From positions 6,816,001 through 6,880,000 of the forward strand of contig CAVTTN010000002.1 of assembly GCA_963737655.1 (NCBI GenBank): 64,000 bases of DNA, given 5' to 3'. Under the pieces are notes generated by a model, which was not told the DNA's origin, did no database searches, and saw only the letters and a program-made list of their open reading frames with translations. Of the stretch, positions 20,139-48,313 are shown one piece after another. The DNA comes from an uncultured Planctomycetota bacterium. Lineage in GTDB: Bacteria; Planctomycetota; Planctomycetia; Isosphaerales; Isosphaeraceae. Every line of letters starts with the position of its first letter. The first letter of the stretch is position 1. The position numbers and the translations under genes were made by a program.

Positions 20139-20831
20139 ATGCTCGATGCCCTGGTGGTCGCCCCTCATCCCGATGACGCCGAGCTGGGCATGGGCGGGAC
20201 GATCGTCCGCCTGATGGCGGGCGGCTGGAAGGTCGGCATCCTGGACCTGACCAGCGGCGAGCCCACGCCGTTGGGTTCGCCCGCCACCCGCCGGGCCGAG
20301 ACGGCCGCCGCCACCGAGGCCCTCGGCGGCCCCTGGCGAGACAACCTGGGACTTCCTAACCGCAACCTGGAACCGACCTTGGAGCATCGCCGCGCCGTCG
20401 CCTCGGTGTTCCGCAAGGTCCGCCCCCGGCTGCTGTTCGCCCCGTTCTGGGAAGACGCCCACCCCGACCACACCGCCGCCACCCAGCTCGTCGAGGCCGC
20501 CCGATTCTGGGCCAAGCTCTCCAAGTCCGACATCCCCGGCGAGCCGTTCCACCCCTCTCGGATCCTTTATTATTTCAGCGTCCATTTGAAGATCGTCGAA
20601 CGCCCGAGCTTTCTGGTGGACATCAGCGATCAAAACGAAACCAAGATGAACTCCCTGCGGTGCTATCGTTCGCAACTGGTGGACAACGTCCCGGAAGGCA
20701 AGCCCGGGGTGATCGACTCGGTGGCGGACCGCTCGCGGTTCTGGGGCCATGTCGTCGGAGTCCGCCACGCCGAGCCGTTCGCCAGCCGGGAGCCGATCGG
20801 CCTCTCGGGCCTGGATTCGCTTCTGCTATGA
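20139..20831 (+). CDS. bshB1: PIG-L family deacetylase (bacillithiol biosynthesis BshB1-like)
   Basis: APHPDDAELGMGGT, LTSGE, DAHPDH, VDIS...K...CYRSQ, AEPF. Confidence 0.85.
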   Translation: MLDALVVAPHPDDAELGMGGTIVRLMAGGWKVGILDLTSGEPTPLGSPATRRAETAAATEALGGPWRDNLGLPNRNLEPTLEHRRAVASVFRKVRPRLLFAPFWEDAHPDHTAATQLVEAARFWAKLSKSDIPGEPFHPSRILYYFSVHLKIVERPSFLVDISDQNETKMNSLRCYRSQLVDNVPEGKPGVIDSVADRSRFWGHVVGVRHAEPFASREPIGLSGLDSLLL

Positions 20832-21112
20832 AAAACCGACCAGGATCGGGCAAAGGGATTCGCATCGGCACCGCGGTTCGCGGCGGGCCTGTGAGGAGGA
20901 GTATCGGGACGACGGGCCGAGGCGATCGCGCGAAATCCCGGGAGGGACGACGGCCCGTCCCCCGAGGCGCCCGATCGCGGAGCCGGGGTGTCCACGAATC
21001 CGGGCCGATTCGCGGCTCGCGCTCGGATTTTTTGATCTGATCGAACCCTCAGCCCGGTCATGACTTGCGATCTTGAAATCCATGATTCCAGAAATGTGGT
21101 GAAATCCGCGCG

Positions 21113-21230
21113 CACGAGTCGTTGCGCACCAGCAAACGGCCGGATTTCCGCCCTTCCGTGAATTTTGGGCGAAAAAGTGTAGTCAAGTTCTGAAGCAACA
21201 GGAAATTCGCATAATTCATTAAAATGAAAT
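21113..21230 (+). repeat. Dispersed AT-rich non-coding element, copy A
   Basis: Ungapped 118-nt match (76/118 by hand count) to reverse complement of 47776-47893; identical core GAAAAAGTGTAGTCAA at 21171-21186. Confidence 0.8.
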
Positions 21231-21273
21231 ATTCAAGGATTGTCGCCGTCGAAGACTGCAAGGGATCTCGGAA

Positions 21274-21301
21274 ACCGCAGATTGTGCAGATTGCGCAGAT
21301 T
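21274..21301 (+). repeat. 9-bp tandem repeat (GCAGATT-containing, 3 copies)
   Basis: CCGCAGATT GTGCAGATT GCGCAGATT. Confidence 0.75.
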
Positions 21302-21420
21302 ATCAATAAATAGTAAATCTATAAGTCTGTTTTTGGTTTAGCGGACCCCCACTCTCCTCCGGGGGCGACGGTTCGCGGACGACCCCGCCACCCGGTCGGG
21401 CTGGGGGGCGGCCCCGGGGG

Positions 21421-22275
21421 TCAACGGCCCCGGGGTCCGGCCGGATCGATGTTCGGTCTACGAAGATCCGACATGTGTTCGATCGTCCAGCCCTTCGGGA
21501 TTTCGGTGGCGAAGTAACCGGCGGGGACCTCCGGATTCACCTCGATCGTCTCGAATCGGATGGTGCGGGACTGATGACCTCCGGCGTTGGCCTTCACGGT
21601 CCGGGGCAGGAGGGTGGCCTTGTCGAGAGTGACCTCTGCGAGCGGGGCCACCCAGACTTCGGGCCGTCCTCGAGCGGCGAAACGCAGGACGTATTGCGTC
21701 GGCGTCTCTTCCATCAGGTCGATCCGGTAGCGGCGGAGGGCGGACTCGACGTCCATCGTCAGGAAGAGAGAGGGGCCATCGGGGTCGAGCAGGTCGAGCG
21801 GCTCCGCGAAGATTGCGTAGTTGAGTTCGGAAAAAATGCCATCGACCGATCGCGCGGCCCGATCCCGTTCGTCGCGGTCCATGGCCTGAAAAATCCACAC
21901 ATGATGAGATTTTCCGTCCAAATGGGTCATTTTATGGTCATTTAAGGAAAGGCGAGCGATCAGGCGAGGCGTCCCTCCCCGCTCGTCGGCGAGGTCGAGC
22001 CGGGCCTTGTCGCGGCCATGCCAGGCGTACCAGCCGCGGAGACGCTCCGTCCGATCGAAGGCCGGGTCGCGGTTTTCGACGGCGAAACGGGCCCGGATCG
22101 ACCGGACCTCGGCGGATTTCCGGGCCCATCGGGCGAGCACGTCGTCGCGGACCGTCGCGGCGTTCGGGTCGGAGGGGGCCGGGAGGTCGGGGACGACCGC
22201 CTCCACGCCGCAGCCCTGGACGATGCCGGGGATCATGCCGAGGAGCGACCAGGAAACGACCTTCCACATCGGCAT
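21421..22275 (-). CDS. Putative lipoprotein, LolA-like fold
   Basis: Signal with VQGC; SIRARF; LDKATLLP..V, I.VNPEVP..YF..EIPKGW tail typical of LolA-like proteins. Confidence 0.6.
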   Translation of the reverse strand: MPMWKVVSWSLLGMIPGIVQGCGVEAVVPDLPAPSDPNAATVRDDVLARWARKSAEVRSIRARFAVENRDPAFDRTERLRGWYAWHGRDKARLDLADERGGTPRLIARLSLNDHKMTHLDGKSHHVWIFQAMDRDERDRAARSVDGIFSELNYAIFAEPLDLLDPDGPSLFLTMDVESALRRYRIDLMEETPTQYVLRFAARGRPEVWVAPLAEVTLDKATLLPRTVKANAGGHQSRTIRFETIEVNPEVPAGYFATEIPKGWTIEHMSDLRRPNIDPAGPRGR

Positions 22276-44952: not shown

Positions 44953-45396
44953 TCACCGGGACCTGGCGCGCTCCAGGGCGATCTCGGCTTCCAGGCGGTC
45001 CGCCGTGGCCTTGAGGGTATCCGCGAAAGAGGCTCGCGCCGCCTTGTGATCTGCCTGGGCAATCGCCTCGGAATTCCGGGCCTCGGCCACCAGCTTCTCC
45101 AGGACCGCCACCCTCGCCTTGTCCGTCTCGCAGAGGTCGAGTTCGGCGCGGAGCGCGTCTCGGTTCGCCTCCGCGACCTGGCGATACGAGGCCCGGCCGT
45201 TCTGGAAGCTCGCCCGGACGGCTTCCGCGGCCTGTTCGAGGATGGCGTGCCTCTCCTTGAGGAGCGCCTTCAGCTTGGTGTCCCGGTCCTCCGCCGCAAC
45301 CGCTCGGGGCGAAGTGCCGCACCAGGCGGCGACGCCTCCGCCGATCACCAACGCCGCGATGCCGAGAGCCGCGAGCCGGGATTCGCGTGAAAGCAT
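44953..45396 (-). CDS. Hypothetical secreted helical protein
   Basis: Signal-like N-terminus; two helical repeats ending in AELDL/AEIAL, reminiscent of TolC-like helices. Confidence 0.7.
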   Translation of the reverse strand: MLSRESRLAALGIAALVIGGGVAAWCGTSPRAVAAEDRDTKLKALLKERHAILEQAAEAVRASFQNGRASYRQVAEANRDALRAELDLCETDKARVAVLEKLVAEARNSEAIAQADHKAARASFADTLKATADRLEAEIALERARSR

Positions 45397-45602
45397 GGGA
45401 GCGCCCCCTCGTCAAGCCGTGATCGTGAGCCGCCGAACGACCAGCCTCCGCGGGCCCGCCCCCCGGAGCGACCCTGACCTTAGCATAAAACCGCCGAGGC
45501 GGTGAGGGGCGAGGTCAGGCGAGGTCGTCCCGAGGCGCCGATGCCCCGGATGGGCGACGGAGCGGCGTGGCCCGCGCCGCACCGGGTCGGCGGCGGGCGC
45601 CC

Positions 45603-45995
45603 TCAGGGCGGTTGTTGGGGAGCATCCTCGAAGGGGCTCGACTCCTCCGCGGGCAACGCGGGCATTCGTCCGTTCCTGAGCGGGTCGGCCGCGCTCATCT
45701 TGGCAGGTTCGGGCGGATCGGCCTCCACCGGAAGCCAGGGGAAGCGGGCCGCCCGCTCGTACTTGCGCTGCATGGCCCAGTCGTAGAATGCTTGCCGAGG
45801 GATGAGGAAGCCCGGGTAGAGCCAGACATGACGCGAGGCGTCTTCGTACCGGGCCGCGATCCGGAGGAACCTCGCCCGACGCTCGGCCAGTATCCCGAGC
45901 GCCACGCCGGCGACCGCCACGGCAACCATCGCCCGTCGCAGGGTGAACCGGGGACCGCGAATGAGAGTAGGCACCGGCAATCTCGCCCCCAACAA
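45603..45995 (-). CDS. Small hypothetical membrane protein (PRFTLRRAMVAVAV-type); start uncertain
   Basis: RFTLRRAMVAVAVAGVALG, RKYERAARFPWLPVEADPP; lies just past the last attC-like site. Confidence 0.6.
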   Translation of the reverse strand: MLGARLPVPTLIRGPRFTLRRAMVAVAVAGVALGILAERRARFLRIAARYEDASRHVWLYPGFLIPRQAFYDWAMQRKYERAARFPWLPVEADPPEPAKMSAADPLRNGRMPALPAEESSPFEDAPQQPP

Positions 45996-46019
45996 CCTTG
46001 CCCGATCGCTTCCCGGGCC

Positions 46020-46112
46020 GCCTCACGCCAAAGCTCAGCGGCCCAGCACCGCCGAGCAAGATCAGGATCGTCTGGTGAGCGCGGCGGCGGTTGCTGAAGC
46101 CGATCTTCGAGC
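46020..46112 (-). mobile_element. Degenerate attC-like site 3
   Basis: Minus strand ends CCGCTGAGC-TTTGGC-GTGAGGC (R' GTT mutated to GTG); left half decayed. Confidence 0.55.
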
Positions 46113-46138
46113 GGTAAGGAGGTATGACGCGGTGTGCC

Positions 46139-46239
46139 GCCCAGCCACAAAGCTCAGCGGACCCGGACACTGACCAGTGAGCTTGAGATTAGAGAAAGCG
46201 CCGACCGTGGCTGGGGTCCGCTGCAACGCGAGTTTAGGC
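46139..46239 (-). mobile_element. Degenerate attC site 2
   Basis: Minus: GCCTAAA-CTCGC-GTTGCAGC-GGACCC ... GGGTCC-GCTGAGC-TTTGTG-GCTGGGC; upstream gene stop TAA inside R''. Confidence 0.75.
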
Positions 46240-46545
46240 CATGTCGGCGATCGAGAAGATAACCACCTCGTCGCGAACCACCGGGAACTCTTGAGACCAG
46301 CAGGCGACGGTTGCGGTTTCGGGACTGAGACGACGAATGGCCGCCACACAGGATACCAAGCCCCAGCGCCGCATGAGCCTGGCAATTCCACGACTGCATG
46401 CCCCGTCGATTTGGAAGGGCGTCCCAGCCGGGGAGGTTAGGAGAGCGGCTCGCAAGTCGTCGTCGAACGTCACGACGTAGGCGCAGACGATGGTGAGGAA
46501 CCGGCGGTGTAGTTTCTTCCTGAGACGCCTCCGATGCCGCATCAT
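46234..46545 (-). CDS. Integron cassette gene 2, hypothetical protein (103 aa)
   Basis: Starts 18 nt after R' of attC1 with GAGG RBS; stop in R'' of attC2; basic N-terminus MMRHRRRLRKKLHRR. Confidence 0.65.
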   Translation of the reverse strand: MMRHRRRLRKKLHRRFLTIVCAYVVTFDDDLRAALLTSPAGTPFQIDGACSRGIARLMRRWGLVSCVAAIRRLSPETATVACWSQEFPVVRDEVVIFSIADMA

Positions 46546-46563
46546 CCCTCGACCGCGAGAGCG

Positions 46564-46663
46564 GCCTAACGCCCAAGCTCCGCGAACCGGCCGCCGACCT
46601 GTGACGTGGATATTACCAGAAATCGACCTCGGCGGCCGGGTCCGCTGCGGCGCGAGGTTAGGC
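46564..46663 (-). mobile_element. attC site 1 (intact cores)
   Basis: Minus: GCCTAAC-CTCGC-GCCGCAGC ... CCGGCCGCCGA/TCGGCGGCCGG stem ... GCGGAGC-TTGGGC-GTTAGGC; 100 bp; complementary RYYYAAC/GTTRRRY. Confidence 0.85.
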
Positions 46664-47005
46664 GCGATTCGGCTCGGTGACCTCGACCACCGAGGCCGCC
46701 CAAAACGACGGCACGCACCAGTCCGGCTCGAAGGTGCCCACCCGCACGCCGATATCTTCCATCTGCCGGCCTGACACGTCCGAGACGTACACCCGGGACC
46801 AGGCGCCCAGCCGCCCGCGGGGCAACTCCACATCCCGAGGGGCGAAGAACCGCAGGCGTCGCTCAACCCCGTTTCGGACGAATGCCAGATCGATGTGCGT
46901 CTGCCGCCAATCGTCCGGGGCGAGGCGGTAAGCGAACTCGACCAGCGCCCACGAGTAGGGGTCGGGCAAGATCGGGTGGAATGGATCGTCTCCGGGGTCC
47001 GACAC
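46658..47005 (-). CDS. Integron cassette gene 1, hypothetical protein (115 aa)
   Basis: GGAG RBS then GTG just after GTTAGCC; stop TAA inside GCCTAAC of attC1. Confidence 0.75.
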   Translation of the reverse strand: MSDPGDDPFHPILPDPYSWALVEFAYRLAPDDWRQTHIDLAFVRNGVERRLRFFAPRDVELPRGRLGAWSRVYVSDVSGRQMEDIGVRVGTFEPDWCVPSFWAASVVEVTEPNRA

Positions 47006-47022
47006 CGCGAGTCTTCTCCGCC

Positions 47023-47045
47023 GGCTAACAAGTATTGGACGGACC
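47023..47045 (-). mobile_element. attI-like recombination site
   Basis: Minus: CCGTCCAA-TACTT-GTTAGCC; GTT core with no matching attC palindrome upstream; lies between first cassette and divergent intI remnant. Confidence 0.6.
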
Positions 47046-47196
47046 GCACGCAATGTGGGGTCTTACGCCCTTGCTCCGCATGCTTTTCAGCATTTCTTGA
47101 AATTATGGGCCGCCTGTTTGCGATGCAAGCGTTATGTCGGAAAGATTCGGGAATGAGGGCGTGGACGGGTGTAGCCCCCGAATCTGGAGTTTTTTC

Positions 47197-47228
47197 GGGT
47201 GCCCCCGGTTCTCGAACCGGGGGCACCC
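47197..47228. repeat. Perfect 15-bp palindrome inside a 100-bp segment bounded by 11-bp direct repeats
   Basis: GGGTGCCCCCGGTTC-TC-GAACCGGGGGCACCC; GGCGTGGACGG at 47158-47168 and 47258-47268. Confidence 0.8.
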
Positions 47229-47260
47229 CAGAAGTTCCGGATTCCAGAGCTATACCCGGC

Positions 47261-47423
47261 GTGGACGGTTGCGGACCGAGGGGTTTTTCGCGATCGACGC
47301 GGCATCTTCACCGCGTTCGCGCGGACGTGAGGCGATTGCATCCCGGCCTTCGCACGGAGGATGCTTATGTGCTATGGTCCGTCGATCCGTCCGGTTCATG
47401 AGACACGGCCTCCGGAGGAGATG
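47261..47423 (+). pseudogene. intI: Integron integrase 5' remnant (N-terminal SAM-like domain), two frameshifts, truncated
   Basis: Three frames join to RHLHRVRADVRRLHPGLRTEDAYVLW/VRRSVRF/HETRPPEEM, matching the IntI N-terminal pattern LL..VR..IR..HYS.RTE.AYV.WI.RFI.FH..RHP.EMG; divergent from cassettes. Confidence 0.75.
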
Positions 47424-47463
47424 TGTCTATTTGTAGGTATTCGCGGGGTCGAGGGCGGTTTTT

Positions 47464-47533
47464 GTCGGGTCCGCTATTGCGGACCTCCTGGCGACGAAGG
47501 GATGGCGAAGAGGTCCGCAATAGCGGACCCGAC
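47464..47533. repeat. REP family C doublet (GTAGGGTCCGCTATTGCGGACC)
   Basis: 70-bp inverted pair; flanks homologous to those of 61686-61755 in opposite orientation. Confidence 0.88.
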
Positions 47534-47775
47534 GAGCCGCGATTCGATGCACTACACGGATGATTGCTAAGATGTAAGCATGCCACGCGAGCCTCGATCC
47601 TTGAGGGATCACTCGACGGTTCCCAGGGCTTGCGATCCTGGGGAATCTGGGGCTTTCGGGAAATCCGCTGGAGAGACTCGGATGGGGTGGGGTTTGCGGG
47701 CGGTTGGCTATGGTTGATTTGCCGATGTTTTCGAATTTATGGATTTGTATTCCATTTTTAAGTAAGATTGATCAA

Positions 47776-47893
47776 ATTTCCTATGGATAAGAAATGCGGG
47801 TTCGATGTTTTGTAGGAAGTTGACTACACTTTTTCCCGAAAAACGCGCCGAAGGGCTTTTTTTCCAGGGTTTTCGGGCGCGCAGTCACTCGTG
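47776..47893 (-). repeat. Dispersed AT-rich non-coding element, copy B
   Basis: Reverse complement aligns without gaps to 21113-21230; core TTGACTACACTTTTTC at 47820-47835. Confidence 0.8.
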
Positions 47894-48313
47894 TCGAGCC
47901 ATGATTATTAATTTGAGAATTTGTTTGATTTTGACGAACAAAGAGCGATGGATAAACGGTTTGCGTCAATCGGAGTTTGGGGCTTCGTCGCCGACTTTTG
48001 TCCGAAAAGTGGACGGCTTGCGGATCGCAAGCGAGGGGGCGGTCGGGAGGGGCGATGGGGGTGGTGGCGGGATTGGGTGATCGGGGGTGGGGGCGGCCCT
48101 CGATGATGGGTTCATGGGGGCGGCGACAATGGGGGGCGGGTTCGATTGGCAGAGCTGGGGAGGGTGGGCCGTGATCGATGGGGATGGGTTCGCGCGATCT
48201 CTCGTCTCGGTCGAGGGGGCGGGGTCCGGGGACGGGGCGGGCCTGGCTCGTCGAGCCGGGATCGGCGGCTCGGGCGCGGGGCGGTCCCGGCGACCGGTCG
48301 AGGTTGACGGCGA

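Follow-up and report, generated by a model that had tools for sequence, protein, structure and literature searches.

Evenly spaced intergenic elements at GC-skew switches of an Isosphaeraceae chromosome are candidate transposon-dispersed replication origins

The chromosome of an uncultured Isosphaeraceae bacterium carries a lineage-specific, evenly spaced and selected DNA module that marks minus-to-plus switches in GC skew, and a unit related to this module is found in mobile form. We judge it somewhat likely (roughly 0.55) that the copies are replication origins, dispersed by a transposon and then domesticated, in a multi-origin bacterium. If true, a naturally occurring bacterium would have origins by the dozen, each defined by its sequence and set at even distances. 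Whether and how bacteria become multi-origin would then be directly testable, with 83 named sites and a box for initiator pull-down, and transposition followed by domestication would be a plausible evolutionary route. If the copies are not origins, a lineage-specific, evenly spaced element that imposes strand asymmetry over 40 kb still needs explaining.

One origin per chromosome is treated as the bacterial rule. Excerpts of a 2015 review state that evidence for a bacterial chromosome with two functional origins was absent (PMC4403523), and excerpts of a 2020 review call single-origin use in bacteria consistent (PMC7174701). The excerpted text of PMC5352709 contains no origin analysis. A literature search largely confined to papers outside subscription turned up neither the element nor any bacterial chromosome with origins in the dozens.

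A family of diverged copies on one chromosome

The source genome (G000) comprises 7.63 Mb in three contigs, and the window, which is the whole 64,000-nucleotide stretch analysed, lies on the 7.60-Mb contig C2. Organism names among the DnaA homologues are in keeping with a placement in Isosphaeraceae. Positions 21113-21230 (copy A) and the reverse complement of 47776-47893 (copy B) share 76 of 118 identities without gaps, exactly as counted in the first-pass annotation. This pair is beyond chance: of 400 pairs taken at random from 108 AT-rich intergenic windows without an element, none reached 76 whichever gap-free 118-nt register was used; the best scored 74 and the median was 48. Copy A does sit between convergent genes, a PIG-L deacetylase (20139-20831, + strand) and an unknown gene (21421-22275, − strand).

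The same annotation had described a two-copy element. We instead identified 83 diverged copies on the 7.6-Mb chromosome. The nhmmer profile search that had been proposed as a check provided the copy number: when iterated, it placed 81 copies with E ≤ 1e-3 on C2 and none on C1 or C3, and it had no match at E ≤ 1 in the reversed genome. Our working set consists of the 83 copies that have E ≤ 0.2 and cover over 40 model columns. With a PWM scan we obtained 85 matches, each within 100 bp of these copies, and none in reversed sequence. Mean ungapped core identity among copies is 0.58, and the element is therefore not an assembly repeat.

Copies occupy both strands (39 plus, 44 minus), and 82 of the 83 are intergenic, outside genes called by a codon-based caller built for this analysis rather than taken from annotation, and thus have no coding capacity. 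Their gene contexts are mixed (24 tandem-in, 25 convergent, 20 divergent and 14 tandem-against). Two further suggested checks came back negative. Strand bias relative to ori and ter is absent (19+/19− and 20+/25− in the two arms), and a linked gene family was rejected, since the 166 flanking proteins contain no family with more than 4 members.

Spacing along the chromosome is regular. Gaps between copies average 91.6 kb with a CV of 0.466, compared to a null mean of 0.98. None of 20,000 random sets was as even, whether placed uniformly or restricted to intergenic sequence, and the null CV never fell below 0.61 (20,000 trials each). Two subfamilies share 450-900 bp, A with 18 copies and B with 7 plus a related pair; copy B of the window belongs to subfamily B. 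Each subfamily avoids other copies (median distances of 64 and 72 kb for A and B versus 31 and 27 kb).

Anatomy of the element

Every copy combines a GTGTNGTCAASTT box with A/T tracts in helical phase and an AT-rich flank. The invariant 16-mer core proposed from the two window copies does not extend to the family; the 16-mer varies, and the family box is AAWGTGTNGTCMASTT, five columns of which are invariant in 83/83 copies. GTGTNGTCMASTT 13-mers occur 80 times in the genome, every time no more than 300 bp from an element. A second box is present at +20/+21 in 15/83 copies, and otherwise there is one box and no cluster. The putative initiator-binding box of copy A is GTGTAGTCAAGTT (21177-21189, + strand), with the 9-mer TGTNGTCAA, as judged from the 13-mer genome scan and from its likeness to the TGTNGATAA boxes upstream of dnaN. 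The copy B box is GTGTAGTCAACTT (47817-47829, − strand), from sequence and family alignment.

A/T tracts precede the box at about −41, −30, −20 and −10, with a periodicity peak at 10.25-10.5 bp, and are predicted to bend or wrap DNA. In copy A these tracts (21133-21176, + strand; about −41, −30, −20, −10 and 0 from the box, period 10-10.5 bp) have the same register as in the same-genus genome G002. A GCGCAC...TGCGC block occupies −64 to −45. In the family alignment it corresponds to the conserved, semi-palindromic GCGCAC-GAGTCG-TTGCGC of copy A (21110-21132, + strand), while in copy B the phased tracts and a CACGAG-TGAC-TGCGC block, from sequence and family alignment, together span 47830-47896 (− strand). 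The unit reaches further upstream than the window alignment, to about −300. CGATCACC is found upstream in 41/83 copies versus 1.3 expected, and the nearest upstream gene is at least 216 bp from the core in all copies, leaving a gene-free zone that is weakly conserved in copy A (20874-21109, + strand).

On the 3′ side, the blocks AACA, CGCAT and GAAAT had been read as identities at fixed spacing. These are not family-wide; just low GC is kept there, with family GC dropping to 0.42-0.49 at 0 to +80. The weakest 40-bp duplex window falls at 0 to +100 in 46/83 copies, and the median weakest window is weaker than 99.9% of 40-bp windows in the first 2 Mb. Composition, family GC and duplex stability make this flank in copy A (21190-21340, + strand) a candidate DNA-unwinding element. 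The whole subfamily-B module of copy B (about −358 to +271; 47561-48190, − strand) is 73-77% identical to other subfamily-B copies. It contains CGATCACCCAATCC at 48083-48070, and its core is flanked by AT-rich sequence on either side. The fixed box, the A/T tracts in 10-10.5-bp phase and the regular genome-wide spacing lend support to the earlier suggestion of a multi-site nucleoprotein element.

The element 9-mer TGTNGTCAA shares a free fourth position with TGTNGATAA and differs from it at positions 6-7 of 9, which is a resemblance and not evidence of binding. None of the 4 genomic TTATCCACA and none of the 14 genomic TGTNGATAA lie inside elements, and loose DnaA-trio runs (four or more, downstream) occur in just 11/83 copies.

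Beyond copy B, outside the element, the sequence contains a putative attC-like imperfect palindrome (47467-47530, − strand), which is followed in our gene calls by small same-strand ORFs that resemble a cassette array. The palindrome and ORFs extend over window positions 44953-47530, and several other subfamily-B copies are followed by arrays with highly similar repeats.

GC skew switches at the copies

Four-fold-site GC skew is minus to the left and plus to the right of the copies, in genes of both strands alike, and fades by 40-45 kb. Corrected for codon box and strand, the jump comes to 0.058 (z 6.5-7.9 across three nulls that use random, intergenic and AT-rich intergenic anchors). It is positive at 57/83, 62/83 and 65/83 copies at 10, 20 and 30 kb, amounts to 0.051-0.080 across all four gene contexts, is found in both orientations and measures 0.049 with the nearest 5 kb left out. 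The best of 3,000 rotations by at least 100 kb reached 0.030, below the observed jump; shifts of this size were used because the rotation maximum is 0.0615 if near-zero shifts are allowed. The corresponding T/A skew jump is not significant (z 0.8-1.3).

Between neighbouring copies the scaled skew drops from +0.036 to −0.045, forming a sawtooth. In a regression the sawtooth term is 0.042±0.004 and the term for a global parS-terminus axis is 0.0064±0.0023, so that the local effect is about six times the global one. Skew is stronger on the 3′ side of the box (0.043 vs 0.014, paired p 2.5e-4). Because a G-rich leading strand is the bacterial norm, the minus-to-plus sign indicates an origin rather than a terminus, and a local sawtooth flip that outweighs the global term is a signature of replication origins. 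Excerpts of the 2015 review note that skew alone is no proof of origins and that skew minima need not be origins (PMC4403523).

The jump grows with copy divergence, measured as terminal branch length (rho 0.27-0.31, p 0.005-0.015). Subfamily A lacks a jump (0.007±0.011 vs 0.070±0.009) and is not younger by identity than subfamily B, so an age reading of the skew is not clean. Apparent skew jumps are also present in large gaps that have no element, and the two that we inspected, at 0.61 and 5.97 Mb, are island-like DNA with atypical composition, tRNA ends and CRISPR arrays. Co-orientation with the forks predicted from the nearest copy is absent among tRNA/tmRNA genes (30/62), rRNA operons (0/3) and genes overall (47-54%).

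Replication and segregation loci on the same chromosome

We scanned the chromosome with motifs that we take to be those of KOPS and parS. The KOPS octamer has one global polarity that switches at 6.56 and 2.40 Mb and is intact genome-wide, and inversions therefore do not explain the skew pattern. Three parS-like palindromes and parA/parB-like genes, the latter read from their sequences, are located at 6.56 Mb (G000:C2 6,556,700-6,567,520), where they coincide with the KOPS switch about 750 kb from dnaA and dnaN. The single KOPS polarity and the parS site thus point to a coherent assembly with one segregation axis. The parAB/parS locus contains neither an element nor an oriC-like box cluster, and a search near the KOPS terminus yielded no convincing dif site. 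Of the rRNA operons (1.48, 2.25 and 4.19 Mb), just 1/3 follows the direction of the parS-terminus arms, an unusual arrangement if a bacterium has a single origin.

Two dnaA genes (471 and 334 aa) and dnaN are located at 5.76-5.83 Mb. From dnaN the nearest element is about 11 kb away; for the short dnaA this distance is 17 kb, and for parS 47 kb. Upstream of dnaN, both in this genome and in many others of the family, lies an inverted pair of TGTNGATAA-type boxes (conserved as GGGGAAAACC-YGTNGATAA; G000:C2 about 5,801,600-5,801,850). From its sequence, this pair is a candidate ancestral oriC or DnaA-regulated promoter; it has no skew jump in this genome. Five near-matches to TGTNGATAA cluster within 400 bp at one place alone, G000:C2 822,525-822,900, which lies some 4 kb downstream of a subfamily-B copy.

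An altered DnaA recognition helix was ruled out, as neither DnaA helix is peculiar to this genome. The short DnaA paralogue (L012:1423-2427, − strand) lacks domain I and, in most of 120 homologues, has RDxxT[VI]RH[AS] where the helix is usually of the RDHTTV type; RDHTT is kept in other planctomycete families.

A related multicopy unit in the same genus

A sequence-only model of the element gave weak matches (E 0.06-0.6) in G002, four of which belong to a multicopy unit of about 800 bp. Unit copies are 88-92% identical over 300 bp (40 of 128 candidates scored), and the best three are 96-97% identical over 801 bp. G002 contains at least 64 young copies of this related unit, and the phased register is common to both genomes. 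A pattern that combines phased tracts with AWGTGTNG, built from both genomes, occurs 51 times in this genome, 64 times in G002 and 0-10 times in each of the other 119 family genomes. The G002 unit is likely homologous to the element, though on thin support: searching this genome with a G002 profile gives no match at E ≤ 1, so that homology rests on a 39-bp register. TTGAC is absent from the G002 box.

The G002 unit is intergenic (no box falls inside a called gene among the 39 copies listed), spans about 730-880 bp and has degenerate inverted ends of about 40 bp and flanking direct repeats of 7-10 bp. Both ends were found in 24/40 fetched copies, and 7 of these 24 lie between direct repeats of 7 bp or longer, versus 4/552 mismatched pairs. 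The first-pass annotation had offered an old mobile-element end as one possibility. The mobile side of this idea gains support from the related unit with inverted ends and target duplications, but the conserved part is internal to the unit and is not an end. This genome gives no inverted-end signal (24.6 vs 24.2 in the control). No partner transposase was found for the G002 ends with the two families tried; no IS256-family transposase was found in this genome, and of the two in G002 neither is at the stray inverted ends, which lie at C13 126.0-126.4 kb, C28 283 and 696 kb and C38 23 kb. A 387-bp unit with both inverted ends of the G002 element (G002:C13 125,992-126,378) is possibly a core-less derivative.

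The upstream gene points away in 30/39 G002 copies. On 10 contigs of known length 0/37 gaps are under 29 kb versus 9.7 expected, with a threshold chosen after seeing the data and an overall CV that is not significant (p 0.13); the contigs of unknown length, which were left out, hold pairs about 8 and 19 kb apart. The G002 skew jump has the same sign and is not significant (0.019±0.013, 22/38, p 0.15; 40 copies fetched).

Other relatives yielded little. G001 and G003, also of the same genus, have no copies in fragmented assemblies (820 and 160 contigs). Searches with blastn of copy A in 30 relatives gave one 25-bp match, the exact box had 1 match in 40 relatives, and the one-mismatch box showed no strong excess over controls in 120 family genomes. 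Synteny around the deacetylase gene in 5 relatives revealed no element-like sequence by eye, and a de novo search of 400 kb each of G036 and G013 gave no such family (for G036, among the matches listed). A metagenome scan returned 26 loci that match the box region alone, which we treat as chance.

Loss of two-arm skew in this genome alone was ruled out, since four near-complete relatives sampled at 10×20 kb each (G041, G125, G128 and G054) lack a dnaN-centred two-arm skew. In G041 the skew is consistent with one origin located away from dnaN, and in G036 it is uniformly negative over 400 kb. The single-contig G054, in which the element has no match, shows extreme, domain-like strand skew, with four-fold-site skew that falls from −0.17 to −0.71 over 140 kb (C1 950-1090 kb) and a minus-to-plus switch near 3.409 Mb (3.400-3.420 Mb), far from dnaN (0.28 Mb, no switch). 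G054 may be a second multi-origin or heavily rearranged genome, and unusual replication geometry may be wider in Isosphaeraceae than this element.

Competing explanations for the element

The copies could be selfish, gene-less transposon remnants that are spaced by target immunity, in a cell that routinely replicates from one low-skew origin. Skew would then come from strand exposure or occasional outward synthesis, through break repair, R-loops or run-off replication in a subpopulation. The inverted ends and target duplications of G002 fit such a scheme, as do the scarcity of short G002 gaps (0/37 under 29 kb vs 9.7 expected, a post hoc threshold), the spacing of the skew-less subfamily A, the persistence of a single parS-KOPS axis with a small global skew and the stronger skew on the 3′ side (0.043 vs 0.014). 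It fits poorly with a box that is almost invariant in a genome where inverted ends give no signal, a combination that indicates selection on the core. More diverged copies have the larger skew, no IS256-family transposase was found in this genome and the two of G002 are away from stray ends, and parS is without an oriC-like box cluster. We regard selfish remnants as an unlikely explanation. It is less probable still that the copies are chromosome-organising sites, either loop anchors or loading sites for SMC-like or nucleoid proteins, which divide the condensed planctomycete nucleoid into ~90-kb domains and leave skew as a by-product of an outward processive factor. Regular spacing, phased A/T tracts, independence from gene context and from the parS-terminus axis, and genes that are not co-oriented all speak for such sites, but the pattern is confined to 2/121 family genomes searched, and no mechanism known to us would let loop anchoring or extrusion flip G over C in both gene strands over 40 kb.

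We consider it very improbable that the copies are multicopy promoters or ncRNA genes whose long-range transcription makes the skew. The reverse strand of the box reads TTGACN, like a −35 hexamer, the upstream gene of G002 copies mostly points away (30/39), and mean fold z-scores are −0.7 and −1.1 against mononucleotide shuffles. However, the family columns 16-18 bp on from TTGACN contain no −10-like hexamer, for want of which a sigma-70 promoter was ruled out, and the TTGAC itself is missing from the G002 box. A multicopy structured ncRNA, raised in the first-pass annotation, finds no backing in folding against dinucleotide shuffles (no signal; z −1.14 to +0.33 for the two window copies) or in Rfam, which has 0 matches in the window. 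All four gene contexts occur, with 25/83 copies convergent, and the skew extends some 40 kb to either side, through genes on both strands.

A model of dispersed replication origins

Transposon-dispersed, domesticated origins are the reading we favour. Modules would have spread through the chromosome inside a gene-less transposon, the inverted ends of which decayed after dispersal while the core stayed under selection. An initiator, for which one of the two DnaA proteins is the likeliest candidate, would bind the box, the phased tracts would wrap the bound initiator, and the AT-rich flank would melt. Forks would leave both ways, more strongly towards the 3′ side of the box. If copies fire stochastically, termination would be spread over each interval, which could account for the linear decay of the skew. 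Even spacing may reflect insertion exclusion, selection against long gaps, or both, and segregation would still run on one parABS-KOPS axis.

An extended version of this model is more tentative. It proposes about 80 homologous, eukaryote-style origins on one chromosome, on which a transposon-borne cassette displaced the ancestral oriC while one parABS-KOPS axis was kept, with G002 captured soon after a sweep by a new cassette variant; we find this possible but somewhat doubtful. The element would be origin-like in its working, but we do not file it as an oriC because it departs from oriC in several tests of membership.

Comparison with known systems

IS256/Mutator-like and similar MITEs generate 8-9-bp target duplications. 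Like MITEs, the G002 unit is intergenic and, in some of its copies, has inverted ends and flanking direct repeats. Unlike them, the element is regularly spaced, has a conserved internal box and a skew flip, and has no detectable ends in this genome. The parS, KOPS, matS and Rok sites are chromosome-organising sites. The elements are similarly repeated and non-coding, and the function of organising sites is chromosome-scale, but the elements are not palindromic, are not confined to ori or ter and have no replichore strand bias. The parS-like sites (three, 6.56 Mb) and KOPS of this genome are separate from the elements.

Excerpts of a review of DnaA-dependent bacterial oriC provide both parallels and differences (PMC6742236). 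As at oriC, the element is intergenic, marks a minus-to-plus GC skew switch (except in subfamily A), and has a box that resembles the DnaA-type box of the family beside an AT-rich flank that, from composition and duplex stability, should melt easily. In contrast to oriC, there are 83 elements per chromosome, each with one or two boxes rather than a cluster; the box differs at 2/9 positions and trio runs are few; and the elements are not beside dnaA, dnaN or parAB, with genes and rRNA that are not co-oriented with forks (PMC6742236).

In the excerpted literature, archaea have one to four origins per chromosome (PMC6742236) and yeast origins are evenly spaced (PMC3834809). The elements resemble such multi-origin chromosomes in being several sequence-defined sites that are more evenly spaced than chance (PMC6742236, PMC3834809) and in their concatenated V-shaped skew (bioRxiv 10.1101/2025.08.07.669222, in excerpt). 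They differ from these systems in belonging to a bacterium and in having no initiator gene beside them (no cluster above 4 among 166 flanking proteins), and they are far more numerous than archaeal origins. Double-origin bacteria are putative and predicted (PMC4403523), and engineered E. coli strains have two or three origins (PMC7174701), as described in excerpts of both reviews. These cases share with the present one more than one candidate origin on a bacterial chromosome (PMC4403523, PMC7174701). Unlike those two or three predicted or engineered sites, the elements described here are dozens of homologous, natural copies with a genome-wide skew pattern.
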